Below, piece after piece: positions 8,241-52,031 of a DNA stretch of 64,000 nucleotides; position 1 is the first letter of the stretch; each line of letters opens with the position of its first letter. This DNA comes from an uncultured Eubacteriales bacterium. Lineage in GTDB: Bacteria > Bacillota > Clostridia > TANB77 > UBA1234. Below the pieces are notes generated by a model. The model saw only the letters and a program-made list of their open reading frames with translations, did not search any database and was not told the origin of the DNA. The position numbers were made by a program, and so were the translations under genes. The stretch spans positions 95,234 to 159,233 of the forward strand of contig CAYMVI010000002.1 in the NCBI GenBank assembly GCA_964394075.1, read 5' to 3'.

Positions 8241-8266
8241 TTTACTGCAATTTTACTGCAACGCAC
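8241..8266. repeat. attL core direct repeat.
   Basis: TTTACTGCAATTTTACTGCAACGCA. Matches 52006-52031 apart from a 1-nt indel. Confidence 0.6.
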
Positions 8267-8277
8267 TAAAAAACAAA

Positions 8278-8469
8278 TTATTTTCTTTTTGGTTTTACAT
8301 ATCTCATAAAATCACAAATATCACAATCAAACATGTAGCAAATTTTAGCTAGTATATCTAAGTCTACTCTATCAACTCTACCACCATCTGAAAATTGGCC
8401 TAAATTAAAAAACATACATGCTTGTCTGTATATTTCAAGCGAATTTATTCTTACATTTATTCCTGTCAT
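8278..8469 (-). CDS. Small HTH-like protein (63 aa) at the prophage left end.
   Basis: C-terminal ILAKICYMFDCDICDF resembles the XRE HTH recognition helix. Weak. Confidence 0.35.
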   Translation of the reverse strand: MTGINVRINSLEIYRQACMFFNLGQFSDGGRVDRVDLDILAKICYMFDCDICDFMRYVKPKRK

Positions 8470-8564
8470 TTTAAATTATACTTTATATTCATTTTGTTTA
8501 TTTTTACTAATCTATGAATTTGGAGAAAAAAAGAAGCCTACCTCGTAAAGAGATAGGCTTAATT

Positions 8565-8810
8565 TTATTTAACTGTTGGCATAACTTCACCTTCAGCGAT
8601 TCTATGTAGTTCTTCAAAATCTTTCTTTGCAAGCTCTTCCGCTTCTTTATATGTTAAGTATGGGTATTTAGCTCCTTTAGTTGCATTCGCTTTAAACATA
8701 CTATAAGCAATATCCATATTAACACCGTTTGCTTTTGATATAGCACCGATTGGTTCATTATATTTATCCTTTATTTCTTTTTCTTTTTGATAAAAATTCA
8801 TATCGTTCAT
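8565..8810 (-). CDS. Hypothetical protein (81 aa) downstream of the lysis genes.
   Basis: ORF with an AT-rich upstream region. No recognisable domain. Confidence 0.35.
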   Translation of the reverse strand: MNDMNFYQKEKEIKDKYNEPIGAISKANGVNMDIAYSMFKANATKGAKYPYLTYKEAEELAKKDFEELHRIAEGEVMPTVK

Positions 8811-8885
8811 TCCTTTCTTTTTAGCCCATAAATTTCATTACCCTTGTCTTTAAAATCGATTTTTGAGGATTCTCGTGGCTCGTTT

Positions 8886-9446
8886 TTAACTCAATAATGT
8901 TTTTACATCGTTTGCCCACTTAATAAAAATCCATTTCTCATCTTTTATAATTTCTAGTTTCTTCAAGGCTAGTTCTTTGTCTAATATTCTTCCCGTTTTA
9001 AATAGATACTCTATTGCATCTAGTTCATCTCCATCTTCAAATAATTCAATTACTTTTTCTTCAACGTAATCTATCCAGTCAAGTTTTCCCCACTGCTTCC
9101 AACCTCTGTCTTTTAAGTTGGTTTCTACTACGCCGTATGCGTGGCCTCTAGCCTCGATTACTTTGCCATTGCCAACATATACCCCAACGTGCCCTGGATA
9201 AAAAACAAGTACACCCTTAACATCTGGCATGCTCGTTATATCGCCTTTTTCTGAACAATGGTCTAAATCAATACCGCCATCAATTTCAGCAGTATATTTA
9301 TCTGGATTATAAAAGTCATCTGGTGTTTCACAGAATAGATATCCTTTTATTAATCCAGAACAGTCATGCACTTTTTGCCCATATTGTTCAGCGAAATCAT
9401 CCGCCTTATAATATTGAGGATATTGAGCCGAAAGTCTTCCTAACAA
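8886..9446 (-). CDS. NlpC/P60-family cysteine peptidase, phage endolysin. The N-terminus may extend to about 9536.
   Basis: HDCSGLIKGY catalytic Cys motif with downstream His. The only canonical in-frame start is TTG at 9446. The conserved N-terminal segment IGRPYWYATHAHK is encoded in-frame upstream with no ATG/GTG/TTG. Confidence 0.7.
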   Translation of the reverse strand: MLGRLSAQYPQYYKADDFAEQYGQKVHDCSGLIKGYLFCETPDDFYNPDKYTAEIDGGIDLDHCSEKGDITSMPDVKGVLVFYPGHVGVYVGNGKVIEARGHAYGVVETNLKDRGWKQWGKLDWIDYVEEKVIELFEDGDELDAIEYLFKTGRILDKELALKKLEIIKDEKWIFIKWANDVKTLLS

Positions 9447-9493
9447 ACTCTCGCTAGCTTTGTGTGCATGGGTTGCATACCAATATGGTCTTC

Positions 9494-9838
9494 CTATTTG
9501 TTTTCGACAGTATTCGACAAGTCCGTAGATTTGTTTTCATTAGTATCCTCTCCTTTCGCTTTATTTATATCTGCCAAACCGTTTGCATTTAATGAGATAA
9601 GAATCCCATTTATGAAGTGCAATACTGTGTTCCACATTTGAAATGTGCCCGCATGTAAATCAACAATTACAAGTAATAAAAAAGCGACTACGATGCTCCA
9701 CAACCTCGTTGGCATTTCCTTTATTCCCCACGCATTTTTAGTTACTGCAACAATCGAGTAAACTGCAAGTACAAATATTGCATAATCTCCAAGCATTTCC
9801 CAAGTCATAAATTGCTCCATATTCTCACCTTCTTCCAC
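9494..9838 (-). CDS. Holin (two TM helices, charged C-terminal tail).
   Basis: 114 aa. Two hydrophobic helices, then a highly charged tail. Immediately upstream of the endolysin. Confidence 0.6.
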   Translation of the reverse strand: MEEGENMEQFMTWEMLGDYAIFVLAVYSIVAVTKNAWGIKEMPTRLWSIVVAFLLLVIVDLHAGTFQMWNTVLHFINGILISLNANGLADINKAKGEDTNENKSTDLSNTVENK

Positions 9839-9860
9839 ACAAAAAGGAGCAGGCTCGTGT

Positions 9861-12800
9861 TTACCTACTCCTTTTATAGATTTTTTCTGATACTGTGTCT
9901 TGTGCAGTACCTTTAGCTTTAGTTAATAAACTTTCTTTTTTCTTTAGTTTCTCCGACTCATTCATCTCTTTGTAACTTCTTTTTTTCTCTTCTGTACTTA
10001 GTAATTTTTCATATTCATCTTTTGCAATCTGTGCATATTCCTTCATGTCAGCTTCTGTGTATTCAACCTCAACTGTCTTCATCGAATTGACTTTGTATTT
10101 ATAGGTTGTTTGTGCTGGATAGTACTCATATAGTTTTATCTTATCTGCGTTACTTGGATTGATTAAATCTTTTCCAAGATAGTATCTAGCTGTATCTGTT
10201 CTTAATTCTTGTAATTCATTGATTTTGTTTTTCTTCTGTTCTGCGTTTAATTGCAAACTATTCCTTGTAGTTTTTATGTCTTTGTTTAATAATTTCAAGG
10301 TATCTTTTGCGTAGTTTAATTGTTTTAGTTGTTCTAACTCTTCTGGTGTAGCCTCGCTATAATTTTTCTTTATCTCAAGTTCACTTGCTAATTCATAAAC
10401 TTCATCTAGAGACACACCACTCTTATATCCGCTAGCAAAGAATCTTTTTAATATAAATTGTTCGCTTTTGTTTTTTGCAGGTTGTTCTCCGCTATCTTGT
10501 ACATCTAAGAATTTATCTGCCAAATCTAAGAATTGTGTACCCAAACCAGCCAAGTATCCCTCAAAAATATTATCAATATATATTGGACTTACATTTAATG
10601 CCCCACCTAGCATTATAGCTAATTCACTAGTGTATTCATTGTATTGATCTGCTGGTTTCGTATCGCCTTTTAAATATTCTGATACTAAGTCTGTTTTATA
10701 ATAAAAATCTTTGTTTAACATATTTTCAAGCAGTGGTTTTATTATTTGTGGCACTGCATTTCCTAAATCATCTGCAGGCAACATATCAAACAATGTATCT
10801 TTTACCCAGTCAGCAAGTCTCTCGCCTTCTTCTCCTTTCGGTATCTTATCATTGCTTAAATCGTATAAATATTCAGCTAGATTTATAAAACTTCTTGCTG
10901 TACCTTGAGCTTTCTTTATAGTTAATGGTTCACTCGTGCTGTCATAAGCTATTACAAAGTTGTCTTTTTTCTTTTGGTCTGTCATTTCTTCAACATGTTT
11001 ATTTTCTTTTTCTTCTGTATATTCTTTTAAAGCAAGAGCAAACGCTATCATTATTCCTAGTTTCAACGATGTTTTAAAAGGATGTGCATGTACAGATTCT
11101 CCAAATCTATATACAGAACCAACTCTCGCTGATGAAAACGGAATAAATTTATTTATAACTCGTGTTGTTTTACCAGCTCTACCGAAGTCTTGAGTTATAT
11201 CTTTTGCATTTAGTGCTGTTTTCAATCGTATATCTCTGTTTGACATTCCCTTTTTTCTATAAAGTTTTGTTTCTTTTCTGAAGTTTTGGAAACGTGTACT
11301 TTCTTCTGTTAACTCCGATGTGTATGTCAAAAGATTCAGCGTTTTGTCTATCAACATACTTGTCAAATCTAAAAACGCTTTGTATTTTGTGCTATTTAAC
11401 TTATATTTACCAGTCTTTGGATCTTTTTTACCAAATAACACTTTTTTGTTTTTACTATATATGTCTGTTGCATTATCTCTTATTTTAGCTCTATATGTTG
11501 AGAATCTACCAGATTGACTCGCTCCACTTTGTTGATATAAATTATAGAACTCTTTTTGTGCTTCTACATATTCCTGGAAAATAGGTACTTGACTTAATAT
11601 TCTTGAAAAAACATTATCTCTTCCAGCAAGAGTATTTACAATTCCAAGGATATTGTCTACCAAAGGAATAAACACAGTATCACTATATAAAAACGCTTGT
11701 TGTGAGTCCGAAATGGCATTCGGCACAGCAAATTCTGCGTTCGCCATTGTAGCACCATATCTCAAAGGCATATTAGCCCAATTCATAAATTTTTCAACTA
11801 TATTCATATTTTGGCTGTTCATACCTTTTAAAACGTTGTACAAGTCTTCATCATAAAATTGAACGAACACCCTTTTTCCATCATCAATATAGCTCATTAT
11901 TTTATTTTTATCATCTGCTAATTTCATGTTAAATACGTTATAAACTTCTTCTAAGTTTAGGTCGGATGTATCTATTCCTTGTTGCGAAAGAGCTTTTTCA
12001 AATTTTGATAATTCAACACTTCCTTTGTATTCCATTGGTGGTGGTACTATTTCAAATAAGTCAGCGTATTGGTTGCTTTTTCTACCTAAATTAACTAATG
12101 ATTTCAAGACTTTATTGTTTTCAACTTGTCTTATAATTCTTGAAGCATTAACAATAGTACTTTCTATTGGATCAATGATTTCACGCTCAGAACCAGTTGT
12201 TTTATACACTGTTTTTCCTACTTTTGCTCCTTTTGTTGATGCAGATATTATTTTACCTTCATTATCCATTACTCTGTTCATCGCAATATAGTTTTCATTT
12301 AATTTTTCAATATCTTCAATTTGTTTCGCTGTAAATAAACCTTCACGCCTTGCATATTCCAAAATACCGTTGTTTTCTTTTCTGAAATTATCTGCTGTTT
12401 TCTTTATTTTTTCATCTTTTTCTAACAGATTAGTTGTCGCAATAGCATCTTCTTTTCTTAATCCTGTTTGTTGCCCTTTCTTCACATAGTCTCGATTTCT
12501 TTGTGCAATCAACAAAGCTCTTAATTTCATCATATCTTCTGCTTTACTTATAGGCTCTAATACACTAGCAAAACCTTGTGTTATTTTTTCATCAGTGTCC
12601 CAATCTCTAATACCCTTATTTAGCATATTAGTTGTTTGGTCGCTTCCACTATTGACCAATCTAAATAGCACATAAGGGTCTTCGCTTGGCTTTAATTCGT
12701 GTCTGTTTCTTAACCCAGTTCTTTTTGCAAGAGTATCGCTAGCCTTTTTCAAATACCAGTTATCATCATAAATTTCAAACATAAGCCTATCTATAAATTT

Positions 12801-15800
12801 ACCAAGAGTAAAATTTTTCTTTTCATCTTCGTTAATAGACACATTACTCATTATTCTTTCTTCAGGTCTCATGTTTATATATGCTTTTACATCGTTTATT
12901 AAATCAGTAAATAACTGATCCAATTCAACATTACTTTCTCTTGCTTCTGTGATAAAATCAGCCAAATAAGGATATTGTTTTATAGCGTTTTCAGTATCTA
13001 CAATATATCTTCTCGTAAATTCTGCAAAACCTTCTTGAAGTTTTATTTTTGGAGTATTGTTATATACATCGCCAAATTGTCTCTCACATAAATTATTCAT
13101 TTCTCTTGCTAATTCTTTGTGTTGTTTTTTCCATGCTAAAGTATCTTTTGTTGGTGTCACATTTAATTGTGCTAAATCGACATGATGTCCTAACTCGTGA
13201 ATAATTGATTCTATATCAGTTAACTGCTTTGTTCTTATAGATTGAATTGCTGAATTATAAACTGCATAAGCTTTTTGTCTAAATCCACCTGTACGAATAG
13301 GTCTGCCTAAATATTTTTCAATTTTTTGGCGAATTTCTTTTCTGCTTATAGTTCCTAAATTTTCTTCTCTGCTAACCTTACCGCTTTCAATGGCTCTAAT
13401 TTTTTGTTCTATTAAAGCTGACATTCTTTCTGCGTTCGTTTTATAAGAATCTTGTACACCATCATCTTTTCTGCTTAACTTTATTTGTGAATCCTCATCT
13501 AATTTAGGCTTTGCCGTTGCTTTTACTTTCTTCACTTTGCCATCTGTATCATGGAATATATTTTCTTCTTTCATGGCATTAATAAGTGCTCGCCACGATT
13601 TATTTATGTTTGCTCTTTCTTCTCCTGCAGGGAAAGGATTAAACAAACCATATCTATCATTGTTAACCGAATGAACCAAATAATCATTTGTTATTCCTTT
13701 TTTCTTTAATTCATCATGTACAAAAGCCTCAAAGCTTCTAGCTAGCATCTCTTCTCTTAGAGCAAAATATGTTGATGCTCTACCCATTAATTTATCCAAT
13801 TCTCTTGCAGATTTACTAAATGCACTTTCAGAGCGAACAAATGCAACCTGTTTAGCAGGCACACCACTTCTATACAAAGAATATACTGTATCATCATCTA
13901 TTTTTCTGTTTGTAACAGCTTTTATAAGTGTTTTCAAATCTTCTAAAGGTTTATCATATATTACTTCAAATTTACTTCTAGAAATTTGTTTGTAATCTCT
14001 TTTGTCCTTTAACTTACCTTCTATAAGTATTTTTCTTATTTTTTCGTACTCTTTCTTTTGTTCTGCAGTTACTTCTATTGGAATATTCTTATATTCGCCT
14101 TTAACTCTCTTATATTTTTTTGCTTTACCATCAAATACATCATCATAATATTTCAAGTTATATTCTATACTGCTTTTTCTATTTTTTTCAAACAAGGCGT
14201 TTTTCTTTGCAATTTCTTCCTCGTTTGTTGAAAAACTGTATTCTATATTATCTAATAGTTCTCTATATGCCTTTGTTACACTTTCTGGAAGATTCCTATA
14301 CATTTTGTGTATACTCAAAAGTCCATCACTATCATAACCAGATAATTGCGATAAATAATTATCTAGTGCATGCCCCATTTCGTGAGCCACACTTCCTGCT
14401 CCTTTTAACTTTGTCATATTAAAAACTTTTTTCACTGGCTCAAAATGTGCAGATGCACCACTTAATCCATGACCTCTTGCACCAAACGCAATAGCCATTT
14501 TACCATTGAATCCTAAGTCTGAAGGTATAATATCTAGTGCTGTTGCCAAATCAGTTAAAGAATCATATCCATAATTTAAAAACTTTTGCCTTTCTTCATT
14601 GTTAACCCAATTTCCAAATTCTCCACCCCTGAAATTAAATTTATCTAATATTTCTTGTCCTGTTGCATTAACACTATTTGCATTATTAGGATTTATTCTT
14701 GTAACTTTTTGAATTTGTGGTCTAAATAGATTTTTTCCATGCTCAGCCAAATACATACTTAAAGCCATTGCGTATGATTCTGCTTCTTCTCTTGTACTAA
14801 AAGATTTTCCAGTATCTCTACTTTTTAATGTTTTAGGTTCTATTATTTTTACAATGTATCTTTTATGCTTATTACCTTCTTTGTCATAAGCATAACCTTC
14901 TTCTACTCTAGCTCTATTATTATTTATGTTTGTTTTAAATTCTTCTAAAAACTTTTCAGCATCCGCTTCTGACTTAAAATCGCCTTTTAAAACATTACCC
15001 TTGAACGCTACACTATATACTTCTTCTGTCTTTCCATCTTCGGTTTCAATAATATCTTTATTGATTGTGTAATTATGAATAACCTCTCTTGTAAAATGTT
15101 TTTTAGTGCCTTGCCATACATCTTTTCTAGCACCACCAATTTTCTCACCAAAATCATCTATTTTTTCTGTTTTGTTTTTAGCTTCCAGTTTTTCAATTTC
15201 ATTTCTTAATCTTTTTCTTTCAGCATCCCATTTATCAAAACCATCTCGTGCTTTTTCAGTATATTGTAATGATTTTGCATATTCTTTGTATTTCAATTCA
15301 GCATAATCAAGCTCTACATTTAACCCTTTTAATTTATCGGCTAAAGAAAAAGAACCCTGTTCATTAGAGTTCTTTTTGTATATTAGTTCTATATGTTTTT
15401 TTATAGTTACAATCGTATCATTGTAAAATTTTTCTCCCAACGCATCAATATATACTTTTTTGAGATATTGTGCATCTTTATCATTTATATCTGTAGTATT
15501 CAGATCACACAAAATTTCTTTTGCAAAATTTTTTAAGTCTTTCGCAATGTCTCTTTTTTGTTTGTTACTTAATAAATCTTTATATTCATTAAAAAGTTTA
15601 TTAATTGCCTTAGCGTTGTTGCTGATAGAGTGTATTATTTTTGAAAAATCTTCTATTACAATTTTAGTATGGTTTAACAGCATGTCTTCTACTAGTTCAT
15701 GATTTAAAACAGCTTTATATCCAACAGACTCTGCTTGCCCTATCGAAATATAAATTCCATCTTGTGCAGTGAAACTAGATATATCATCGTTTTGAAAAGC

Positions 15801-36946: not shown

Positions 36947-36948
36947 TT

Positions 36949-38736: not shown

Positions 38737-38748
38737 TATTAATTCCTC

Positions 38749-39661: not shown

Positions 39662-39874
39662 TATATCTCCCTCGTAAATTTCTGTTCCGTTCTTATCATA
39701 TTGTCCGTGTGGATTGTCCTATTGTTTCTTCTAGCACTTCCATATAAAACCCTGTACGAGCTACAATTTGGTAATGGTTTAACATGTTAGTTAAACTTCC
39801 ATATACCCAATCACCGCATTTAGTTTTCCCTCTGAATTTAATCTCTCTCATTCATTCACCTTCATATTACTCTC

Positions 39875-42497: not shown

Positions 42498-42500
42498 CTC

Positions 42501-42821: not shown

Positions 42822-42822
42822 A

Positions 42823-43296: not shown

Positions 43297-43709
43297 CCTG
43301 TGCAGTCATCTATAAGTTCATACACAGATACTGTTTTGCCTGTATATTTACACTTCTTTTTGTCAGTCACTTTCACTAGATGATATCTTTTCTCTAGTTC
43401 AGTTAACCTTGGAGCTGACCAGTTGCGTTCCGTTGAGCTAGCATAACCAAGCTTGTACATTTCAACAGCCACTTCTTTAGCGGTCATTGCTCCATTAGCC
43501 TTTAATATTTCTCGAATCTGAGAATATCTTTTAACTTTATCCACAGATTCGTTAGATTCTCTTCTACACTCATTGCTTATCATTTGCACACCACGCTCCT
43601 TATAGTCTGTGAGTAAAACAGAATTGGTCTTCGTATGGGATTTGCTCCCACCCTTCTTGTTCTTTTGCCCAAGACAAAGCTTTAATTTTTCCACCAAAAG
43701 TAGACACAT
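43263..43709 (-). CDS. Winged-helix-like hypothetical protein. Probable true start is the internal ATG at 43583.
   Basis: The longest ORF overlaps the replisome-organizer gene by 110 nt. The internal Met (MISNECRR...) reduces the overlap to 18 nt. Confidence 0.35.
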   Translation of the reverse strand: MCLLLVEKLKLCLGQKNKKGGSKSHTKTNSVLLTDYKERGVQMISNECRRESNESVDKVKRYSQIREILKANGAMTAKEVAVEMYKLGYASSTERNWSAPRLTELEKRYHLVKVTDKKKCKYTGKTVSVYELIDDCTGWEQLKLEAVI

Positions 43710-44229
43710 CGAATTTGTCTCGTGCGTTTTTTAATAATGAATTATAAAGATCATTAGTTTTATTGTTTATAGTTTTATTTATGTTGTCATTTTGTCTGTC
43801 ATTTTGTTTGCCATTTTGTATGTCATTTTGTATGTCATTTTGTTTTGACTCTGCAATTTGACTGTCATTTTGTGGAGTCAAATTAATTTGTTTGTCATTT
43901 TGCAGTGGCAATTCGTTTTGTCTGTCATTTTGCTGAGTCAGCTTTTCATCATACAATTTGACAATCTTATATTCTCCTGCTTGATTGCCTCTGCCTTTTT
44001 TGTACTCGATATATCCTTTTTGGATGAGTTCGTTCCTTACTCTGTCAAATGTTCTATCATCTAAACCAGTCTTAATTACTAATTTTGAATTAGGTATCAC
44101 AAATCTTTCTCTCCAAAATAGCTTATTGTTTATATCCAGCAAATGGTGGTATAAGCAAAATGCTTTTATAGAGATTGGATGTTGTTCTAGTAATTCATAA
44201 AAAGAATTTAACTGTTCGATATAGTTCAT
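43600..44229 (-). CDS. Phage replisome organizer (DnaD-like N-terminal domain) with an internal iteron-encoded QND-repeat region.
   Basis: N-terminus MNYIEQLNSFYELLEQHP...FCLYHHLLDINNKLFW...RVRNELIQKGYIEYKKGRGN is typical of phage_rep_org_N. The C-terminal half is coded by 9-10-bp tandem repeats. Confidence 0.65.
   Translation of the reverse strand: MNYIEQLNSFYELLEQHPISIKAFCLYHHLLDINNKLFWRERFVIPNSKLVIKTGLDDRTFDRVRNELIQKGYIEYKKGRGNQAGEYKIVKLYDEKLTQQNDRQNELPLQNDKQINLTPQNDSQIAESKQNDIQNDIQNGKQNDRQNDNINKTINNKTNDLYNSLLKNARDKFDVSTFGGKIKALSWAKEQEGWEQIPYEDQFCFTHRL
43786..43935. repeat. Iteron array (at least 9 copies of TGTCATTTTG-like 9-10-bp units) inside the replisome-organizer gene. Putative phage origin of replication.
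   Basis: Sequence gtcattttgtctgtcattttgtttgccattttgtatgtcattttgtatgtcattttg...gtcattttgcagtggcaattcgttttgtctgtcattttg. Confidence 0.6.
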
Positions 44230-44243
44230 TTTCTCACCCGCTT

Positions 44244-44864
44244 TCAGTCGTATTTAAAACCATTCCACTTATGGAACACTAAATTTTCTTCGTTCCAAGA
44301 ATCCCCGTATATTGATTGCAGGTATTCTCTTATTGTTTTTCTTGTTTCTTCTAATTTTGAGCCATTGTCGTATTCATGGTGACACTCTGGACAACCTGTT
44401 ACGATATTTTCTTCTATTCCTAGTCCGCCATTGTTGCGTGATATGTAGTGCATGTTAGGTTCTCCTTTTCTTACACCACACACCACGCAAATGCCATTGT
44501 CTCTTTCAGCTACTTTAGCTCTTACTTCTGGCGATATATCTGTTAATTTAGATCTAGTAGATTTAAACTTTGGTTTGCTTCCATATACTTTTACTAGAAG
44601 TTCTTTGTTATATTCCGTTACATTCTTGTTATCTTTTATCTTCATCATGAAGTCGTTTTTATTTAGAAAAATCTCTTTTTTATCACACCAGAATGTTTTC
44701 TTTCCATAGCTATCTACTAAAAATTGTTCTCTATCTTTACTTTCGCCTTGAATGTGTACCTTTTGCATCTTGTATTCAGGTTCATCGTTCCAGTCGTTAC
44801 ATGATTTGTTGTAAAGCAATCTATATGCTTTTATTTTATTGTTATATTTAATGTATTCTTTCAT
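44244..44864 (-). CDS. HNH endonuclease (C-terminal HNH).
   Basis: CVVCG...GCPECHHEYDNG is an HNH zinc-finger motif. Confidence 0.65.
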   Translation of the reverse strand: MKEYIKYNNKIKAYRLLYNKSCNDWNDEPEYKMQKVHIQGESKDREQFLVDSYGKKTFWCDKKEIFLNKNDFMMKIKDNKNVTEYNKELLVKVYGSKPKFKSTRSKLTDISPEVRAKVAERDNGICVVCGVRKGEPNMHYISRNNGGLGIEENIVTGCPECHHEYDNGSKLEETRKTIREYLQSIYGDSWNEENLVFHKWNGFKYD

Positions 44865-45407
44865 CTACATCACCTCTACTGAATATGTAGTGCCGTTTCT
44901 TTCAAATGTGTTTTGACCTTTCTTTAACATTGCACTAATAAATCCTTGATTGTTGCCAAAAAACATTCCAGCTTGAGACATGCTTCTGAATTTTGCTTTT
45001 GCTCCCGTTTTTGTGTTAGTAATTGCAATGTGTTTCTGAGTTGTTTGTAAATTTGTTTCAAAAGCGTGGCGAATATTATCCTCTAACGTAAGCCACTCTA
45101 AATTTTCAACATTATTATTAAAACGATTACCATCTTTATGATTCACTGTCATATTAGTATCTATTAAATCCTCGAGAAATGTTGTTGCTACTAATCTACA
45201 CACAAGAAAACTTTTTGGTTTACCATCTTTCCATAAATCAACTCTATATCCCGTTTTTATATTTCGACTTTTAAATTGTAATATTCTATCTTTCCAATGC
45301 CTTGTCCCATGTCTTTCAGTGCAAGATATTTTATTGTGCGTTCTTACTCTTCCTTTATTGCTTACTTGATAACCAGGATAGCCTCTAATATCTCTCCATT
45401 CTTCCAT
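44865..45407 (-). CDS. HNH homing endonuclease (NUMOD4 plus HNH_3).
   Basis: EEWRDIRGYPGYQVSNKGRVR is the NUMOD4 motif. VNHKDGNRFNNNVENLEWLTLEDN is the HNH_3 motif. Confidence 0.7.
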   Translation of the reverse strand: MEEWRDIRGYPGYQVSNKGRVRTHNKISCTERHGTRHWKDRILQFKSRNIKTGYRVDLWKDGKPKSFLVCRLVATTFLEDLIDTNMTVNHKDGNRFNNNVENLEWLTLEDNIRHAFETNLQTTQKHIAITNTKTGAKAKFRSMSQAGMFFGNNQGFISAMLKKGQNTFERNGTTYSVEVM

Positions 45408-45416
45408 ATATACCTC

Positions 45417-45833
45417 CTAAAAAGGTAAGTCCAATCCATCATCTTCAGTCACTAGATTAAATGTATTTGCTTCTTCAGAATTAAATGGAGCTGATGATGT
45501 TGTTTCTCCTTTTTTCTTTGTATCTGCAAAATAAACTTCTTCAGCAATAACTTCTGTTACATATACTTTCTTCCCATCTTTGTCATCATAGTTTCTTGTT
45601 TGTAATCTTCCAATAACACCTACTTGTTGACCTTTGTTGAAGTACTTGCTACAAAACTCTCCAGTTTTATCCCAAGCTACTATATTAAAAAAGTCTGCTT
45701 GTCTTTCTTCACCTTGCTTTGCAAATCTTCTATTTACCGCTAATCCAAAACTGGCTACCATCGTGTTATTTCCACTTGTGTATCTTACTTCTGGATCTCT
45801 AGTTAAACGCCCCATTAATATAACTTTATTCAT
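45417..45833 (-). CDS. ssb: Single-stranded DNA-binding protein.
   Basis: OB-fold N-terminus MNKVILMGRLTRDPEVRYT. Acidic C-terminal tip DDGLDLPF. Confidence 0.85.
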   Translation of the reverse strand: MNKVILMGRLTRDPEVRYTSGNNTMVASFGLAVNRRFAKQGEERQADFFNIVAWDKTGEFCSKYFNKGQQVGVIGRLQTRNYDDKDGKKVYVTEVIAEEVYFADTKKKGETTSSAPFNSEEANTFNLVTEDDGLDLPF

Positions 45834-45848
45834 CTTTTTTCTCCTTTT

Positions 45849-46568
45849 TTATTTAATAACTATAAGGCTTTTAATGATTTCTTCTGTGTCTCTCCATTGT
45901 TTTTCTAATTCATCTGCTAGTTTTTGTTCACCACAAAAAGTAATCATTACATAGTGACCTTCTTCGTATTCTTTTATTGGAAATGCAAGTTTTTTCTTGC
46001 CTAGCTTTTCCGCTTTAACAACAGTTCCTTCTGCATTTAATTGAGCAACAAATTTATTGGTTAATGTTTCTAGAGTTTCTTCAGATTGAGTGGGATCAAT
46101 AATCATAATCGCTTCATATTGTTTAACTTTTTCTTTATGTTCATTTGATTCTGTTTCTTTATCCTTTTTTTCTTTTTCTTCTTTTTCAACAATTTCTAAA
46201 AGTTTTTTAATAGCTTCATCTACAAATTTATCCATTTCTGTTTCTGTTTTTTCTTCATAAGAACTTGAACCCTTATTAATAGTTTCTGTTTCATAAAAAT
46301 GTTGTGCTAATTTTATTTCTGGGTGCTCTTCTAAATATATCTGTGTCATTTGTTTTAACATGTCATACATTGTTAATTTCATGATTATATTGCTTTTTGA
46401 AGTTTCAACTACTATATGAGGTTCTGTTTGTTCTCCGCTTTGTTTTATTGCAGGCACAATTATTTCGACTCTAACATAATGACCACTTTTTAAAATTTCA
46501 TTTCTTCTTTGTTCTCCTTTTTTACTTACTTTATTTTTTTGCATTTTCAATACCTTCCTATAATTCAT
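45849..46568 (-). CDS. Fusion protein: N-terminal domain of unknown function plus C-terminal ribosomal protein bS6 (RpsF)-like domain.
   Basis: The last ~90 aa, YEAIMIIDPTQSEETLETLTNKFVAQLNAEGTVVKAEKLGKKKLAFPIKEYEEGHYVMITFC...EIIKSLIV, align position-by-position with bacterial S6 (B. subtilis MRKYEVMYIIRPNIDEE...GKRRLAYEI..GFY...). Located immediately upstream of ssb, as in the host rpsF-ssb-rpsR operon. Confidence 0.6.
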   Translation of the reverse strand: MNYRKVLKMQKNKVSKKGEQRRNEILKSGHYVRVEIIVPAIKQSGEQTEPHIVVETSKSNIIMKLTMYDMLKQMTQIYLEEHPEIKLAQHFYETETINKGSSSYEEKTETEMDKFVDEAIKKLLEIVEKEEKEKKDKETESNEHKEKVKQYEAIMIIDPTQSEETLETLTNKFVAQLNAEGTVVKAEKLGKKKLAFPIKEYEEGHYVMITFCGEQKLADELEKQWRDTEEIIKSLIVIK

Positions 46569-47037
46569 ATTTGATAGCTTCTAATTTCTTTTTCAAGGCG
46601 TTTTGCTTGCTATCTATACTTTCATACGCCTTTTTAAATCTAAATAATCTCGCACCAAGCTGAGCTAGTTCGACAAGTTCTTTCTTTACGAACTCTTTCG
46701 CCATTGCCTCAAAATAACTCATCGCTGGAGCTTTATCTGTATTTGTTTCTTGCCATTGTTTTCTTTGCATATAAACTTGTTTATTTTCTGCGATGCTTGT
46801 TTCTGTTTTTAATACATCGTATTGCTCTTGTAGTCTTGCTATCATTTCTCCTAATAAGAAGTTCATATTTGCATATATTTCAATGTTTTTAGCTATGTTA
46901 AATCCTGTGTCAGCATCTTCTATTATTTGTTCTTGCAATTTTGTATATGTATCTGCTATCTGTTGATTAGTTGCTTGTGATATTACAAAAGGATTAAATA
47001 AATATAGTTTCTTAAAATCTTCTCCCATTGTTTGCAC
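46558..47037 (-). CDS. Hypothetical phage protein (159 aa, coiled coil).
   Basis: ORF between the ERF and bS6-fusion genes. Confidence 0.3.
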   Translation of the reverse strand: MQTMGEDFKKLYLFNPFVISQATNQQIADTYTKLQEQIIEDADTGFNIAKNIEIYANMNFLLGEMIARLQEQYDVLKTETSIAENKQVYMQRKQWQETNTDKAPAMSYFEAMAKEFVKKELVELAQLGARLFRFKKAYESIDSKQNALKKKLEAIKYEL

Positions 47038-47637
47038 CTACTTTACATCTGGCATTCCTGAAATTTTTTTCATAATCGCTATTTTTCGTGCAACTGTTAA
47101 TTCTTTAGTCGAGCTAACTTTGTAATTATGTTGTAATTGAGCTTCAACATCTATTCCTTTTTTCTCCATGATGTCATGTAGGATTTTGGCTTGTTCTTCT
47201 GATAACAATTCATCGCTTTTTTGTGATGTCTCTGGAGCTCCTTCATCTGGATCATCTTGTGTTGGAATACAGAACACTTGAAATAGTGCATATTTCATAG
47301 CTATTGCCATTGCTTTATTGGTTGCCTTATCTCCGCTATCCATACCTTCACCTACTGTTATAGCTTCTACAAACGAACCATCTTCTGCGTAAAATGTATA
47401 TTTAACAGTACATATTGAATAAAGTAATTGAACTCCGTTTTTGGTTATTCTTTCTTCTCTTTTTTGTTCTATTACTTGCGGAACTATAAATACTTTGTGC
47501 TTAGCTAATAGTGGTTGAAATGCGTTCATGACATCATCAATACCTCTATACTTAAACCCTTGTTGTTTGTTTTCTTTATCCTTACTGATTGCTGGTACTT
47601 CCTGCATAATGTTACTTATTGCTTGATAGATGTGCAT
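47038..47637 (-). CDS. erf: ERF-family single-strand annealing protein (recombinase).
   Basis: IYQAISNIMQEVPAISKDKENKQQGFKYRGIDDVMNAFQPLL is typical of the ERF superfamily N-terminus. Confidence 0.65.
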   Translation of the reverse strand: MHIYQAISNIMQEVPAISKDKENKQQGFKYRGIDDVMNAFQPLLAKHKVFIVPQVIEQKREERITKNGVQLLYSICTVKYTFYAEDGSFVEAITVGEGMDSGDKATNKAMAIAMKYALFQVFCIPTQDDPDEGAPETSQKSDELLSEEQAKILHDIMEKKGIDVEAQLQHNYKVSSTKELTVARKIAIMKKISGMPDVK

Positions 47638-48458
47638 AACATACCTCCTAATTCATGAGTTATTTTTGCAGTTTCTAAATATTTAAGAACATTGGCTAGT
47701 TCCTCATCTGTTACATTTAATATAAGTGCCACTTTCTTTTTTTGTGGAACTAATTCAAACTCTGTCTTTGGCTCAAATTCTATTTGTTCTACTTCTTCTA
47801 TTGTTGGCACATGTTCTACTTGTTTTTTTATTTCTTGTTTTGCCTTTTCTTCTTCAATAGCCTTAAATCTATCGTTTACATTCGTAATTGCCTTACTTAC
47901 ATTTAGTGATTGCTTGTATTCAACCAAGATTTCCGCTTTGTGTTCTTGTGTTTCAATGAGATTTAAGTCATCGGCAATCTTATCTATGAATGCTTTCGCT
48001 TGTTCTTTTAAACTCTTCATGCTAGCTGATAATGTTACATTTATGTTTGCGTTCTCAAATGTAACAAAATCAATATTCTTTTCACTTAGATATTCATTGA
48101 AGTATTTCTTTACTTCTTCTTTTTTCTTTTCTTTTAATTCATTCTCAACTGAATCTATTTTGCTTTTCAAATCTGCATCAGCTTTCTTGAACTTATCGCC
48201 AATGTATATTTGGTAAGCAGTTTCAAACTCTTCATAAGGCTTCATTATTTCTGCTTTAACGTGTTTTCTCTTGTCTTCAAAATCTTTAGCTTCCTTATTT
48301 AAACTTGCTCTTACTTCTTTGATTGTCTTTACATTCTCTTCTGTGCAAATTAAAGACATTGCTTCATTTACCTTCTTGTCGATTTCTTCGCTTGCTAGTT
48401 TTAATTGCTCTTTTATAACTGGTAATTGCTCAATTACGATTAGTTCGTTATTATTCAT
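47616..48458 (-). CDS. DUF1351-like phage protein (commonly ERF/SSB-associated).
   Basis: 280 aa. Coiled-coil-rich. Conserved synteny upstream of erf in Bacillota phages. Confidence 0.4.
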   Translation of the reverse strand: MNNNELIVIEQLPVIKEQLKLASEEIDKKVNEAMSLICTEENVKTIKEVRASLNKEAKDFEDKRKHVKAEIMKPYEEFETAYQIYIGDKFKKADADLKSKIDSVENELKEKKKEEVKKYFNEYLSEKNIDFVTFENANINVTLSASMKSLKEQAKAFIDKIADDLNLIETQEHKAEILVEYKQSLNVSKAITNVNDRFKAIEEEKAKQEIKKQVEHVPTIEEVEQIEFEPKTEFELVPQKKKVALILNVTDEELANVLKYLETAKITHELGGMLCTSIKQ

Positions 48459-49470: not shown

Positions 49471-49686
49471 TTACCGTTTAACTGTAATTTCATTGCAAAA
49501 AAAATCAATGTCGTTGTAGCTTATATTGAAATGTTTTTCAATTCTTTTTAATACAGGAACATCTGGAAAAGTTATTCCTTTTTCATAATTAGCCCACGTT
49601 TCAACACTTACGCCTATAGCTTTTGCGGTTTGTTCTTGTGTCTCATTTGCGTTAACCCTTATTGCTCTTAACGAATATTTTGGCAT
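49471..49686 (-). CDS. cro: Cro-like XRE-family HTH regulator.
   Basis: 71 aa. ETQEQTAKAIGVSVETWANYEKG is an XRE HTH. Divergent from the CI-like repressor. Confidence 0.65.
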   Translation of the reverse strand: MPKYSLRAIRVNANETQEQTAKAIGVSVETWANYEKGITFPDVPVLKRIEKHFNISYNDIDFFCNEITVKR

Positions 49687-49689
49687 TCC

Positions 49690-49815
49690 ACAATCACCTC
49701 CATTACTGTTTTACTGTAATTATATTATTACGGTTTAACTATAAAGTCAATAGTAAAACTGTAATTTTTTTAATTTAGCATTGAATAAATTACGGAATAG
49801 CTGTATAATAGCTTT
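49690..49815. promoter_or_regulatory. Divergent PR/PRM-type promoters with repeated TTACGG/CTGTAA operator half-sites (cI-cro switch region).
   Basis: Plus strand TTGAAT-18-TATAAT (49781-49810) for cI. Minus strand TTGACT-17-TAATAT for cro. Half-sites ACTGTAATTATATTATTACGGT (49714-49735), AAACTGTAAT (49755-49765) and TTACGGAATAGCTGTAT (49791-49807). Confidence 0.5.
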
Positions 49816-49831
49816 TGCGGGGGGTGAATTG

Positions 49832-50458
49832 ATGAGTGATTTAGGTAATAAAGAAATATTAGCTAAAAATTTAGAATATTATATGAAGATTAACAGTAAA
49901 GACAGAAATGATGTTGCAAGAGATTTGGATATTCCTTATACCACTTTAACTAGCTGGCTTAAAGCTGAATTTTATCCAAGAATTGATAGAATCCAACTAT
50001 TGGCTAACTACTTTGGAATACAAAAATCAGATTTGGTTGAAGAAAAAAAGGAAGTATTATTTGAATCAAAGCAAGTGTTTCCACTACTTGGTACTGTAAA
50101 AGCAGGATATAACTATTTAGCACAAGAAAATTTTATTGGATATATCTGTATGGATAAAGAAGTTTCAGATCCTGAAAATTACTTTGCATTAAAGGTCACT
50201 GGTGATAGTATGCAACCTATACTTTATGATAATGATATTGTTATAGTTCACCAGCAAAATGATATTGAAAACGGACAAATTGGGATCGTTGTAATAGATG
50301 GAGAAGAAGCAACTGTAAAGAAAATAAACAAATATAATGACCATATTGATTTAATTGCTTTTAACTCTTATTATCCACCAAAAAGATTAGATATAGACTC
50401 TAATTTTAAAATTATAGGTAAAGTTGTAGAAGCCAGAATTAGCAAGATATTTGAATAA
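49832..50458 (+). CDS. CI-like phage repressor (XRE HTH plus S24 LexA-type peptidase).
   Basis: RBS GGGGGTGA then ATG at 49832. N-terminal HTH. C-terminal VTGDSMQPIL...K Ser-Lys dyad autopeptidase motif. Confidence 0.8.
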   Translation: MSDLGNKEILAKNLEYYMKINSKDRNDVARDLDIPYTTLTSWLKAEFYPRIDRIQLLANYFGIQKSDLVEEKKEVLFESKQVFPLLGTVKAGYNYLAQENFIGYICMDKEVSDPENYFALKVTGDSMQPILYDNDIVIVHQQNDIENGQIGIVVIDGEEATVKKINKYNDHIDLIAFNSYYPPKRLDIDSNFKIIGKVVEARISKIFE

Positions 50459-50476
50459 ATTACAAGGAGAAAAATT

Positions 50477-50680
50477 ATGAAAAAAATTTTAAAAATATTA
50501 TGGTGGTTAGTATTTATGCCAATATTAGCAGTTGCGTTAGCTGTTTTTGTAACATTTGCTATATTACACCATTGTCAGTATAGTAATATAACTATAAGTA
50601 CTGTTACTACATTATTTGTTAATCCAGCTGTATTTTTTGTTTCTATACTTTATGGGTTGAAAAAAATTAAGAAAAAATAA
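50477..50680 (+). CDS. Small two-TM membrane protein between cI and int. Candidate superinfection-exclusion/moron protein.
   Basis: 67 aa. Two hydrophobic helices. RBS AGGAGA. Confidence 0.4.
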   Translation: MKKILKILWWLVFMPILAVALAVFVTFAILHHCQYSNITISTVTTLFVNPAVFFVSILYGLKKIKKK

Positions 50681-50685
50681 AAAGG

Positions 50686-50806
50686 ATAATGTGTTTCAAG
50701 TTTGCGACACGACACACATTATCCACCAAGGTAAACACTCCGAAAAGTGGTTACAACACATATTTTATATGTTGTACCTCCACTTTTCAAGTGTTTATTG
50801 TAATAA
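50686..50806. promoter_or_regulatory. Long imperfect inverted repeats/hairpins upstream of int.
   Basis: GGATAATGTGT..ACACATTATCC (50687-50728). Also AAACACT..AAAAGTGG..ACAACATA mirrored by TATGTTGT..CCACTTTT..AGTGTTT (50740-50800). Confidence 0.4.
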
Positions 50807-50830
50807 ATATTTGAAATGGAGGTTTTTTAT

Positions 50831-51997
50831 ATGGGGAAAAGAGGTAATGGCGAGGGTTCTATCTATTACCATGAAAAGCTTAAACGATGGGTTGGCCAAT
50901 TTACTGCTGGATATAAAGATGATGGAAAATTAAATAGAAAAACCGTATATGGGAAAACTAGAAAAGAAGTTGCCACAAAAATTAATGAAAAACAAAATGA
51001 ATTGATTAATAACACTTTTGTAGATAAAACAGATGTCAAATTCTACGAACTGGCACAAAAATATATAGATGATAGATATAATTCTAATATTATTACGGCA
51101 ACCACATATTTATCTAACACATATGCGTTAAATCGATTAAAACAAACAAAAATCTATTCTGCAAAAATTCAAGATTTAACAGCCAATTTTATCAATAAAG
51201 AACTTACAAAATTAAAAAAATATTCTGCTTCTGTTATTGAAAAGGAAAAGTTTATAATTTCTAATACATTAGATTTGGCTGTGTTAAATAAATTAATTTA
51301 CACAAATCCTTTTTCTATTAAAAAATCAATTATAATTCCCAAAAGCGATGTGCAAACTCGTGAAGTTGATGCTTTCACAACTGATGAACAAAAATCACTT
51401 ATAGAAGAACTAAATTCAAAAGATTACAAATATAAGGATATTATATTAATAGCTCTTTATAGCGGTATGCGTATCGGCGAAATACTTGCATTGGAAAAAG
51501 ATGATGTTGATTTAGAAGAAGGGATTATTCATGTTAAAAGAACGCTAACTAAAAACGAAAGTCAGAAATTTATCGTTGGCTCAAAAACAAAAACTTATGC
51601 AGGCAAAAGAACAGTGCCTATTTTTCCACAAATCAAATGTTTTTTTTACGATATGCCTGAAGGATTATTATTCACCCAAAATGGAAAAATAATAATACCA
51701 CCAGCAATCAACTCAGCCTTTAAAAGAATTTGCAAAAATGCAGGCATTAGATTGGCCAAATACCCTTTACACAGAGGTGGAAAAGTAATACAATTAAATA
51801 CAAGTGAAGCACATACGCACATGCTTAGACATACGTTTGCAACTAGATGTATTGAAGCTGGTATGCAAGCGGTAGTATTACAAAAGATTTTAGGCCACAA
51901 AGATATATCGGTGACATTAAATACATATACATCTATTTTTAATAAATTTAAACAAACGGAGATTGAAAAAGTGACAAATTATTTAGAGACATTTTAA
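50831..51997 (+). CDS. int: Tyrosine-type phage integrase.
   Basis: RBS GGAGG then ATG at 50831 (MGKRGNGEGSIYY...). C-terminal catalytic region HMLRHTFATRCIEAGM...LGHKDISVTLNTYT (R..H..R..Y). Confidence 0.85.
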   Translation: MGKRGNGEGSIYYHEKLKRWVGQFTAGYKDDGKLNRKTVYGKTRKEVATKINEKQNELINNTFVDKTDVKFYELAQKYIDDRYNSNIITATTYLSNTYALNRLKQTKIYSAKIQDLTANFINKELTKLKKYSASVIEKEKFIISNTLDLAVLNKLIYTNPFSIKKSIIIPKSDVQTREVDAFTTDEQKSLIEELNSKDYKYKDIILIALYSGMRIGEILALEKDDVDLEEGIIHVKRTLTKNESQKFIVGSKTKTYAGKRTVPIFPQIKCFFYDMPEGLLFTQNGKIIIPPAINSAFKRICKNAGIRLAKYPLHRGGKVIQLNTSEAHTHMLRHTFATRCIEAGMQAVVLQKILGHKDISVTLNTYTSIFNKFKQTEIEKVTNYLETF

Positions 51998-52005
51998 TAC
52001 AAAAT

Positions 52006-52031
52006 TTACTGCAATATTTACTGCAACGCAA
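52006..52031. repeat. attR core direct repeat.
   Basis: TTTACTGCAATATTTACTGCAACGCA, immediately 3' of int. Confidence 0.6.

Follow-up and report, generated by a model that had tools for sequence, protein, structure and literature searches.

We begin by considering the 64,000-nt window, the whole stretch of DNA from an uncultured gut Clostridia bacterium that was analysed here. It carries, at the tmRNA gene ssrA, a temperate-type prophage that is apparently intact. The best explanation of the element as a whole, to which we give a probability of about 0.8, is a prophage recombined at ssrA across a 12-bp core, with CI/Cro lysogeny, a short tail and an ejected giant protein. This is a known kind of phage and the mechanism is not new; the overall design most resembles that of the temperate podophages P22 and 933W/phi24B.

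The integration target, ssrA (7841..8194, + strand), is identified by ARAGORN and by a full-length match to Rfam RF00023 (157 bits). Its final 11 nt plus one further nucleotide make up the attL core, CATCTCCACCAA (8184..8195, +), and this exact 12-mer is found at only one other place, where an identical copy, the displaced tmRNA 3' end, makes up the attR core (52153..52164, +). Comparison with prophage-free relatives (L001-L004, 85-88% DNA identity) shows that the homology ends at 8194/8195 on the left side and that host homology picks up again at 52184 on the right side (L001, L003, L004), and in L002 ssrA directly adjoins the sequence at window position ~53117. The same locus also holds prophages with 84-86% identical integrases; eight related attR regions are alike from int through the P arm to CATCTCCACCAA and diverge immediately beyond it, and integrase P0071 has three different downstream flanks. 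Because these comparative data place the crossover at CATCTCCACCAA, the prophage is taken to extend from 8196 to 52164 (43,969 bp). The first-pass annotation had proposed a 43.8-kb temperate prophage at the ssrA 3' flank; the prophage and its association with ssrA stand, and its borders have to be moved. Judged from the sequence comparison, the crossover lies within the 12-bp identity that is the tmRNA 3' end, and the insertion is inside ssrA rather than 46 nt downstream of it.

Integration would be carried out by a Tn1549/Tn916-family tyrosine integrase (388 aa; 50831..51997, +; PF00589, 97 bits; phrog_1; nearest solved structure Tn1549 Int, 6en0), recombining the phage attP with the tmRNA 3' end in CATCTCCACCAA. 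Such a reaction would leave ssrA intact and move the original tmRNA 3' end to the other border of the element, 155 nt beyond the stop codon of int, and the phage hairpin directly after the core would act as the new terminator of the gene. This terminator-like hairpin, borne by the phage in its P' arm (8201..8230, +), consists of a perfect 13-bp stem with a T-rich tail behind it, with a fold energy of -17.3 kcal/mol (z = -6.4); it is absent at the empty sites of L001-L004 and is the replacement for the native ssrA terminator.

The lysogenic state would be kept by a LexA-like self-cleaving CI repressor with an HTH and an S24 peptidase (49781..50458, +; PF00717, 110 bits; PF13443; phrog_4), divergent from the gene of a Cro-type HTH regulator (49471..49686, -; PF01381, 37 bits; PHROG repressor/regulator families). 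The divergent cI-cro control region (49687..49780) has palindromic repeats of the ACTGTAAT type and is conserved in L018. A partial Cro/C1-type HTH protein of 63 aa is located at the left end of the prophage (8278..8469, -; PF13443, 26.8 bits). The early region for replication and recombination (36581..48458, -) encodes a methyltransferase, RusA, a DnaD-like initiator, two HNH endonucleases, SSB, a bS6-domain protein, Erf and a DUF1351 protein, and a candidate transcriptional regulator of the late genes is found at 36150..36554 (-; phrog_36, E = 1.9e-20). No phage RNA or DNA polymerase is present in the prophage, and the early genes (CI/Cro, Erf, SSB) are of the lambdoid rather than the T7 type.

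The packaging genes encode the terminase small subunit (34164..34604, -; PF03592, 82 bits) and large subunit (32669..34171, -; PF04466, 122 bits). The head is expected to be of the HK97 type, combining a Mu gpT-like capsid protein with an SU10-like portal. The major capsid protein (27992..28906, -; PF10124, 53 bits; phrog_371) belongs to the HK97 fold family, and the portal protein (625 aa; 30545..32422, -) matches PHROG portal families as well as PF23899 SU10_portal with 26 bits, under the Pfam cut-off of 30, a family whose match is clear in relatives. By tblastn this portal is 22-25% identical to those of phages PK1, API480 and SV21; API480 is a podovirus by electron microscopy (PMC6937236), and we count the relation between its portal and that of the prophage as support for a short tail. 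A highly charged protein of 237 aa (52 acidic and 44 basic residues), encoded between portal and capsid genes (29259..29972, -), is by its position a candidate scaffold. For lysis there is an NlpC/P60 endolysin with more than 1600 homologues (8886..9446, -; PF00877, 31 bits), and directly upstream of it a holin-like membrane protein of 114 aa (9494..9838, -) with hydrophobic stretches at residues 14-39 and 41-69, which matched no family. With the integrase, CI, Cro, Erf, SSB, DnaD-like protein, RusA, both terminase subunits, portal, capsid, holin-like protein and endolysin all accounted for, the complete lysogeny, replication, packaging and lysis set that had been claimed is borne out. The prophage also holds a tRNA-Met(CAU) within its structural module (30055..30129, -; ARAGORN and Rfam) and a cluster of tRNA-Ile(UAU) and two atypical tRNA-like genes (35400..35796, -).

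We turn our attention to the tail. The 222-aa protein (22007..22675, -), a head-to-tail adaptor of the gp11/tail tubular protein A type, matches PF24175 SU10_adaptor with 50.4 bits (cut-off 27) and, weakly, a PDB entry named 'Tail tubular protein A' (9k09_d). The 542-aa protein (20379..22007, -) is assigned as the tail nozzle or hub from its AF2 model (pLDDT 81.5, pTM 0.83), for which the best 32 Foldseek matches in the PDB are all podophage nozzles or hubs (Pa223, VP1, SU10, P22 gp10, T7 gp12), with E = 3e-19 for the Pa223 tail. The comparison of these two proteins with T7 gp11 and gp12 that the first-pass annotation had proposed is thus positive, and matches to tail tube, sheath and tape-measure proteins, sought even at E <= 0.5, are absent as it had stated. 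These results support a tape-measure-free, podovirus-type short-tail module, as it had suggested; its term 'T7-like', however, is too specific, given the lambdoid early region without phage polymerases and tail proteins that are closest to the SU10, P22, VP1 and Pa223 types. In the assembled particle, the adaptor, of dodecameric type, would sit on the portal and be followed by the beta-propeller nozzle, with fibres or appendages attached. The oligomeric states of adaptor and nozzle are taken from homologous structures. The missing tail tube genes are negative evidence, and the morphology is a prediction from the genes.

The remaining tail genes are less well characterized. An appendage protein of 213 aa (22676..23317, -) has a pectate-lyase-like N-terminus (PF12708, 39.6 bits) and matches PHROG tail spike and pre-neck appendage families, a conserved virion-module protein of 214 aa (23330..23974, -) matches PHROG families of unknown function only, and a conserved tail-associated protein of 451 aa (26574..27929, -), 81% identical in L033, has a weak match to phrog_10588 'tail protein'. 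The variable 857-aa protein (24077..26650, -) is a candidate receptor-binding fibre; it matched no family, and L033, a relative of 87-90% identity, has a 417-aa protein in its place. No fold could be assigned to the virion-module proteins of 593, 857, 451 and 214 aa. The morphogenetic synteny is kept in L033, L034, L035 and L030.

The giant protein of 2835 aa (9861..18368, -) is a phage-type polyvalent protein with the domains LPD38 (PF18857, 88.5 bits) and LPD1 (PF18796, 66.9 bits), the motifs HEMGH and HELGH and a stretch rich in Gly (residues 175-235); this agrees with its earlier description as an internal-type protein. Its tblastn matches are in Page-like Bacillus phages, Pelagibacter phage HTVC010P, Vibrio phage VvAW1 and the Stx phages, and include phage genomes of 33-41 kb. 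Proteomics of phi24B virions detected its gp47 (2811 aa; LPD5, LPD1 and LPD38 plus a metallopeptidase; bioRxiv 10.64898/2026.04.10.717836). By analogy with gp47, to which it is linked only through shared domains and partial alignments, the 2835-aa protein is presumed to be a capsid-packaged ejection or effector protein that would leave the head with the DNA. The 593-aa protein (18380..20161, -), predicted to be all-alpha with a disordered N-terminus, is probably packaged and ejected likewise. Its position is conserved in L033, L034 and L030; it matches neither families nor the PDB, and its single-sequence model is poor (pLDDT 41). The ejected proteins could lengthen the channel, act on host targets, or both.

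Which role, then, do the imperfect repeats play that lie 46 nt after the tmRNA end and just after int? Their reported positions are correct: the left one, TTTACTGCAATTTTACTGCAACGCA (8241..8265, +), belongs to the P' arm and is separated from the attL core by 45 nt; the right one, TTTACTGCAATATTTACTGCAACGCA (52005..52030, +), belongs to the P arm, begins 7 nt beyond the stop codon of int and lies 122 nt before the attR core. Each is a tandem of 2 x TTTACTGCAA, and the 14-mer TTTACTGCAACGCA occurs at these two places only, with two matches in 0 of 100 shuffles. The first-pass annotation had them delimit the element, which would make the prophage 8241-52031 and its insertion intergenic. Such a reading accounts for repeats that are long (25/26 bp), far beyond chance, and that bracket all phage genes, but we consider it very improbable: the tmRNA 3' end recurs without a mismatch at 52153-52164, the empty sites near ssrA in the relatives have neither repeat nor hairpin, and the 122 nt from the right repeat to the second CATCTCCACCAA are kept with int in other prophages before different flanks begin, and are therefore phage DNA. 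Most probably the integrase binds the repeats as arm-type sites, a role that we infer since a sequence search of the N-terminal 90 residues of Int matched no known arm-binding domain. That domain result, together with an arm motif, ACTGCAAT, one base off the cI-cro operator half-site ACTGTAAT, leaves room for another binder, and in the same architecture the repeats could instead serve the phage repressor, or some other HTH protein, as binding sites, for example to couple immunity to int expression or excision. This is unlikely, because the operators are palindromic and the arm repeats direct, and because the P arm repeat, kept after int in L018 and L019, has a related form (TGCAAC..TGCAACG) in L020-L026, where an 84% identical int directly precedes it and repressor and operator are unrelated.

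No attP or circular form of the exact phage was found in our search, so its competence for excision is presumed, and the exact nozzle and integrase sequences are on a single contig each; a cryptic prophage that has lost induction and has merely intact-looking genes deserves some weight, though the odds are clearly against it. For every expected module there are long open frames, the two att cores match exactly, and a relative with 87-90% protein identity is found on a 44.7-kb contig with gene positions that, by inferred arithmetic, would fit a circularly permuted map of the prophage. There are also eleven nozzle homologues, with a longest contig of 42.6-50.4 kb. Scarcely credible, by comparison, is a long-tailed phage with tube and tape-measure genes too divergent to spot, in which the 2835-aa protein might serve as tape measure. 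Several virion-module proteins are indeed unassigned, and the giant protein is long, with a Gly-rich hydrophobic segment; yet both adaptor and nozzle are found, the giant protein has LPD1/LPD38 and HExxH motifs and homologues in Stx phages, Page-like Bacillus phages and other phage genomes of 33-41 kb, and neither a chaperone-frameshift pair nor distal tail or baseplate matches are present.

Among known systems, the Stx phages 933W and phi24B, temperate lambdoid podophages of E. coli, share with the prophage the lambdoid early region, the adaptor-nozzle short tail and a late-region protein of ~2800 aa with LPD1 and LPD38, linked to the giant protein by tblastn and phrog_616. They differ in host phylum and attachment site, DNA similarity is undetectable, capsid, portal and nozzle are fold-level relatives only, and their toxin cargo is absent in this prophage. 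The temperate podophages P22 and Sf6 have CI-type immunity and head-packaged ejection proteins alike, and the P22 tyrosine integrase acts at the 3' end of a small RNA gene, which we count as a likeness. The nozzle fold matches P22 gp10 and Sf6 gp8 (E about 1e-13, TM about 0.55), whereas no homologues of the P22-type gp26 needle, gp9 tailspike or gp7/gp20/gp16 are recognisable in the prophage, which has one giant polyvalent protein and a Mu gpT-like capsid protein instead. The E. coli Kuravirus SU10, source of the Pfam SU10 families, matches in its adaptor above the cut-off and in its nozzle fold (E = 8e-16), with chains of about 910-920 residues as opposed to 542 here. SU10 is virulent, its head is elongated and its genome is ~77 kb long, and it has no lysogeny genes in common with the prophage.

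Elements integrated in ssrA are like the prophage in using the ssrA 3' end as attB, duplicated at the far junction, and in the tandem build-up of remnants downstream. Prophages and islands in ssrA were reportedly reviewed by Williams in 'Traffic at the tmRNA gene'; known examples are mostly from Proteobacteria. Compared with other ssrA elements, the identity block here is short, and we count its length of only 12 bp against the best explanation.

The closest cultured relatives, both distant, are Bacillus phage PK1 and the Paenibacillus podophage API480. Together with SV21 they have Bacillota hosts, genomes of about 41-45 kb and the late gene order of the prophage (TerL, small ORF, portal, scaffold, capsid, tail proteins, giant protein, lysis), but protein identity is just 22-41% and there is no DNA similarity. 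API480 differs in that it encodes a DNA polymerase and a primase of its own but lacks an integrase. PK1 is 41% identical in TerL, 25% in the portal, 31% in the capsid, 29% in the nozzle and 26% in the giant protein; it carries an XRE regulator, Erf and a recombinase, annotated as 'recombinase family' as opposed to the tyrosine integrase of the prophage. Nothing in the literature consulted refutes the claimed rarity of such phages in Bacillota; bearing on it, the Bacillus phage PK1, which is distantly related and carries lysogeny genes, is already in GenBank.

The tmRNA gene occupies 7841-8194 on the + strand (ARAGORN; Rfam RF00023, 157 bits, match to the full model) and is left intact. The first-pass annotation had bounded a 43.8-kb prophage at its 3' flank (8241-52031) with imperfect 26-bp direct repeats, and both repeats exist where it put them: TTTACTGCAATTTTACTGCAACGCA at 8241-8265 on the left and TTTACTGCAATATTTACTGCAACGCA at 52005-52030 on the right, their sequence confirmed and each copy made of two 10-mers TTTACTGCAA in tandem. 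The 14-mer common to the two has no other copy in the window, and two matches were seen in 0 of 100 shuffles. A second direct repeat, the 12-mer CATCTCCACCAA, is found at 8184-8195 (the last 11 nt of the tmRNA gene plus one base) with an exact copy at 52153-52164. The question is then "which of the two repeats marks the crossover?"

Prophage-free related chromosomes, retrieved through an exact match to the window's RecR protein, are only 85-88% identical in DNA and therefore represent species different from the window's host. In the four loci considered (L001-L004), ssrA adjoins the right-flank genes with no prophage between, and neither the TTTACTGCAA repeat nor the hairpin seen after ssrA in the window is found. 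In L002, ssrA ends with …CATCTCCACCAA and is followed directly by the RBS and start of the gene at window position ~53133; the other three have an unrelated 237 bp after ssrA, and homology picks up at window 52184. Integrase homologues of 84-86% identity reside in prophages of other genomes at the same chromosomal locus, and eight attR regions from related prophages were aligned. These are alike from the end of int across the repeats and the next ~120 nt as far as CATCTCCACCAA, and unrelated directly beyond; in addition, downstream of one and the same integrase (P0071), three different sequences occur. The ~120 nt that follow the right repeat are thus phage DNA, and the crossover falls in the 12-mer. 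The junction comparison with prophage-free relatives, suggested with the original boundaries, moves the crossover away from the 26-bp repeats, and by these alignments the prophage is the segment 8196-52164 (43,969 bp). A more general caution follows from this correction, that the longest direct repeat at the ends of a prophage may be arm-site DNA and not the crossover.

Upon excision, position 52152, the core CATCTCCACCAA and position 8196 would be joined as attP with a junction reading …TTTTTATCATCTCCACCAAAAATTAATGCC…, and the empty chromosomal attB would read …TCCTCATCTCCACCAATCAATCAC…. Directly after the attL core is a 13-bp perfect hairpin with a T-rich tail (8201-8230; -17.3 kcal/mol, z = -6.4), and this phage hairpin takes the place of the native ssrA terminator. 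Searches for attP or the excised circle, with two patterns each in viral contigs and JGI metagenomes, gave no match, and these collections may lack this phage. The empty-site junction TCATCTCCACCAATCAATC gave only four matches in the species-representative genomes, all by chance and in unrelated genomes. No relatives of the integrase were found in IMG/VR, and neither the 217-aa ORF of the right flank nor either start variant of the integrase had an exact match on record. Endolysin homologues were also considered as a route to further attL sites; the homologue followed up belongs to a phage that is unrelated and encodes a serine recombinase, the lysin being a shuffled module.

The ssrA 3' flank is a pile-up of old insertions (window 52165-53116; L001 18663-18899; and 11322-11880 of L021, a locus with a related prophage). 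L002 is without 950 bp of window 52165-53116, which holds a 212-aa membrane-protein gene (52316-52954). The 237-bp insert of L001, L003 and L004 differs from that of the window, is rich in TTGAATA repeats and has CCACGCG at its bounds, and three loci with related prophages (L021, L024, L025) carry a decayed copy of the window phage's P'-arm hairpin directly after their own attR. Within the tmRNA gene (window 7937-7960 vs 8024-8050), the tag peptide given by ARAGORN, VETKLSKL-stop, is probably a miscall; another frame reads …NNNKVALAA-stop, with the canonical ALAA ending.

What are the 26-bp repeats, if they are not the crossover? In the reconstructed attP one lies in the P arm, right behind int and 122 nt ahead of the core, and the other in the P' arm, 45 nt beyond the core. 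Their orientation is the same in both arms, with two 10-mers per arm, written TTTACTGCAAT(A)TTTACTGCAAC. The arm-type integrase sites of lambda-like systems show such a layout, with repeats in both arms around the core. The integrase (50831-51997; PF00589, 96.8 bits; phrog_1, E = 4e-60) has its stop codon 155 nt before the attR core. Its closest solved relative is Tn1549 Int (6en0, E = 3.5e-17), in an alignment that begins at residue 91, and in the Tn1549 Int family the arm-binding domain is in the N-terminal part, equivalent to the ~90 leftover residues here. Since these N-terminal 90 aa have no Pfam or PDB match, we infer the arm-site role from the layout and regard the repeats as putative integrase arm-type sites.

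The other DNA-binding protein to be weighed is the CI-type repressor. The cI-cro operator half-site ACTGTAAT, which is palindromic (49702-49765), is one base off the arm motif ACTGCAAT, which is direct, and this likeness may be a coincidence or cross-talk between immunity and integration. In related prophages (L020-L026), the repressor and control region are unrelated, yet TGCAAC…TGCAACG is kept right after an int of 84% identity. This retention favours Int over CI as the putative binder of the arm repeats, as the motif appears to track Int across the relatives. An inverted TATACTGCAA at 52120-52129 was considered as a third arm site; it is not conserved in L018, a further related prophage, and is taken as chance.

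Gene content was assigned from PHROGs and Pfam, and at this level of annotation the complete lysogeny, replication, packaging and lysis set of the first-pass annotation holds. Nearly all ORFs between the repeats are on the minus strand, with the exception of the repressor-integrase block at the right end. The lysogeny-control group includes the tyrosine integrase, a 67-aa membrane protein, the CI-type repressor (49781-50458; HTH and S24 peptidase domain) and a divergent Cro-type HTH gene (49471-49686), and a late regulator candidate is located at 36150-36554. For replication and recombination there are a DUF1351 protein, Erf, a protein with a ribosomal S6 domain, SSB, two HNH endonucleases, a DnaD-like initiator, RusA and a methyltransferase. 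Packaging and head genes are TerS, TerL, portal, a charged scaffold candidate and a Mu gpT-like capsid protein, and lysis is represented by a holin-like protein with two hydrophobic segments and an NlpC/P60 lysin.

Several of these genes deserve a remark. The two HNH endonuclease genes are different from each other and lie in tandem (44244-45407, minus strand) between the SSB and DnaD-like initiator genes. A tRNA-Met(CAU) gene is found inside the structural module (30055-30129, minus strand), and a tRNA cluster at 35400-35796 (minus strand) contains a tRNA-Ile with the uncommon UAU anticodon. Two further tRNA-like genes of 84-88 nt are atypical, one called by ARAGORN (Phe, or Ser with an intron) and the other by Rfam. 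The S6 domain (PF01250, 75.5 bits) is at the C-terminus of a 239-aa phage protein (45849-46568, minus strand) encoded directly upstream of the phage SSB gene, an arrangement reminiscent of rpsF-ssb in bacteria. In animal-associated phages, bS6 genes have been reported (PMC6375957).

We turn to the tail. The 222-aa protein (22007-22675), whose gene adjoins that of the 542-aa protein, matches the SU10_adaptor family (PF24175, 50.4 bits vs a cut-off of 27) and, weakly, the PDB entry 9k09_d, "Tail tubular protein A". For the 542-aa protein, without a family assignment beforehand, 65 homologues were collected, 41 of which were aligned for structure prediction, and the resulting model is all-beta (pLDDT 81.5, pTM 0.83). 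In a Foldseek search of the PDB, its best 32 matches are all podophage nozzle, hub or muzzle proteins, headed by 9nwi_Y of Pa223 (E = 3.4e-19, TM 0.63) and including those of Pan3, VP1, SU10, P22 gp10, PhiM1, Pam1, A4, Sf6 gp8, T7 gp12, GP4 and crAss001. The comparison of the two proteins with T7 gp11 and gp12 that had been proposed thus returns an adaptor family and a beta-propeller nozzle fold. Tail tube, sheath and tape-measure genes are again not recognisable: no late ORF matches these, or a tail-assembly chaperone, in PHROGs or Pfam, even at E <= 0.5, this being negative evidence. Among deposited phages, tblastn with the portal matches only Bacillus phage PK1 and two Paenibacillus phages, API480 and SV21. 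For API480, a distant relative, EM gave a tail of 12 x 8 nm (PMC6937236). The late gene order is kept in relatives at 30-90% protein identity; it runs TerL, small ORF, portal, scaffold, small ORF, capsid, a ~450-aa protein and variable fibre, then a ~210-aa protein, adaptor, nozzle, 68 aa, ~590 aa and the giant protein. Taken together, the adaptor, the nozzle fold, the portal relatives, the failure to match tube or tape-measure genes and the conserved order make a short podovirus-type tail a well supported prediction from the genes.

Of the "T7-like" morphogenetic module first described, then, the podovirus-type tail is retained and the label is not. No polymerase family is found among the ~30 larger early-region ORFs and the late module, replication being that of a DnaD-like initiator, SSB, Erf and RusA; with no phage RNA or DNA polymerase and with a lambdoid early region, "T7-like" is not supported. 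The sole match to internal core proteins of the gp14/gp15/gp16 type is phrog_511 "internal virion protein", a weak one and on the nozzle itself. The position of the T7 internal core proteins is taken by a polyvalent LPD1/LPD38 protein.

This giant protein of 2835 aa, whose gene is between the tail genes and the holin in the late operon, contains LPD38 (PF18857, 88.5 bits) and LPD1 (PF18796, 66.9 bits), a glycine-rich hydrophobic stretch and two HExxH motifs, HEMGH (~1329) and HELGH (~1724), with no Pfam peptidase model matched. LPD38 is phage-only according to Iyer et al. 2017 on polyvalent proteins (PMC5512222). By tblastn it is related to large proteins of Page-like Bacillus megaterium phages, Pelagibacter HTVC010P, Vibrio VvAW1 and Stx-converting phages, the last being the most numerous. 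The phi24B gp47 (2811 aa) of this last group has LPD5, LPD1, LPD38 and a metallopeptidase; a 2026 preprint reports it to be abundant in virions by proteomics and invisible in the reconstruction, and its authors propose an ejection protein (bioRxiv 10.64898/2026.04.10.717836). By analogy with phi24B gp47, the one protein to which the virion proteomics applies, the 2835-aa protein may be a packaged and ejected effector or conduit protein. The earlier "internal-type" assignment of two proteins is accordingly kept, as a likeness in domains, for the 2835-aa protein; the 593-aa protein has no identifying match. It is predicted to be helical, its single-sequence AF2 model is of low confidence, and a profile search against the PDB gave no usable match.

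Among phages of Proteobacteria, the temperate short-tailed type is well known. P22, the 933W/phi24B phages and the window phage have a common design: temperate, with CI/Cro immunity, a tyrosine integrase at a small-RNA gene, an adaptor-nozzle tail and head-packaged ejection proteins (putative in the window phage). The 933W/phi24B phages resemble the window phage still more than P22 does. No DNA similarity to deposited phages is detected except in the tRNA-Met gene, and proteins of the nearest cultured phages are 22-41% identical, figures that put the window phage outside the genera of P22 and 933W/phi24B. As to the suggested rarity in low-GC Bacillota, we found no description of a temperate short-tailed phage of Clostridia in the literature consulted, and to this extent the suggestion is not contradicted. 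It has to be softened for Bacillota as a whole, since Bacillus phage PK1 is already on record with five late proteins in common with the window phage and with a recombinase, an XRE regulator and Erf; the type is thus not wholly absent. Faecalibacterium phage Epona was also considered as a temperate podophage of Clostridia and was set aside, since its paper lists it as Myoviridae-type.

A more far-reaching reading, at a probability of roughly 0.55, is that the window phage belongs to a lineage, probably at family level and so far undescribed, of temperate short-tailed phages of uncultured ruminant and human gut Clostridia, in which the conserved late module combines an SU10-type portal and adaptor, a nozzle of P22 size and a giant LPD1/LPD38 ejected protein. 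If so, the Stx-phage design of a "lambdoid podophage with a giant polyvalent effector" would also be present in Gram-positive gut anaerobes, and the lineage would offer a Clostridia example with a recognisable adaptor, nozzle and putatively ejected giant protein. It has dozens of metagenomic relatives, many on ~45-kb contigs, and prophages of this type may be annotated as "incomplete", being without tail tube and tape-measure genes. The phage is of moderate interest in classifying gut phages and in the study of polyvalent ejected proteins, whose effector domains differ between close relatives.

The exact phage proteins are on one NCBI contig (202.8 kb), and relatives are found in ruminant and Hadza human gut assemblies. 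Eleven nozzle homologues have their longest contigs at 42.6-50.4 kb. Against 1.84 billion cluster representatives, the nozzle profile recovers 43 proteins at E <= 1e-30 and 2130 at E <= 1e-3, and by this profile the nozzle clade is a small one within a broad podophage nozzle superfamily. In the closest relative, L033, the virion proteins are 87-90% identical to those of the window phage. Its giant protein is 3191 aa long, with an ADP-ribosyltransferase (ART-PolyVal) domain replacing part of the middle region (13658-21629 vs window 9861-18368), and the 857-aa fibre candidate (window 24077-26650) is swapped for a 417-aa protein (7100-8353). These two loci are hot spots of module exchange. On the 44,742-bp contig of L033, ERZ28436054 NODE_444, the nozzle-gene position would, by arithmetic, fit a circular permutation of the prophage map. 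As for the host, NCBI labels "MAG: … [Clostridia bacterium]" are attached to members of the 90%-identity clusters that hold the window's RecR, YbaB, CorA, TruA and MBL-fold proteins, and to the RecR sequence itself. Its small (4.5S-type) SRP RNA at 62772-62866 (minus strand) is a hint on lineage; many Clostridia and Bacilli have a long Alu-containing SRP RNA.
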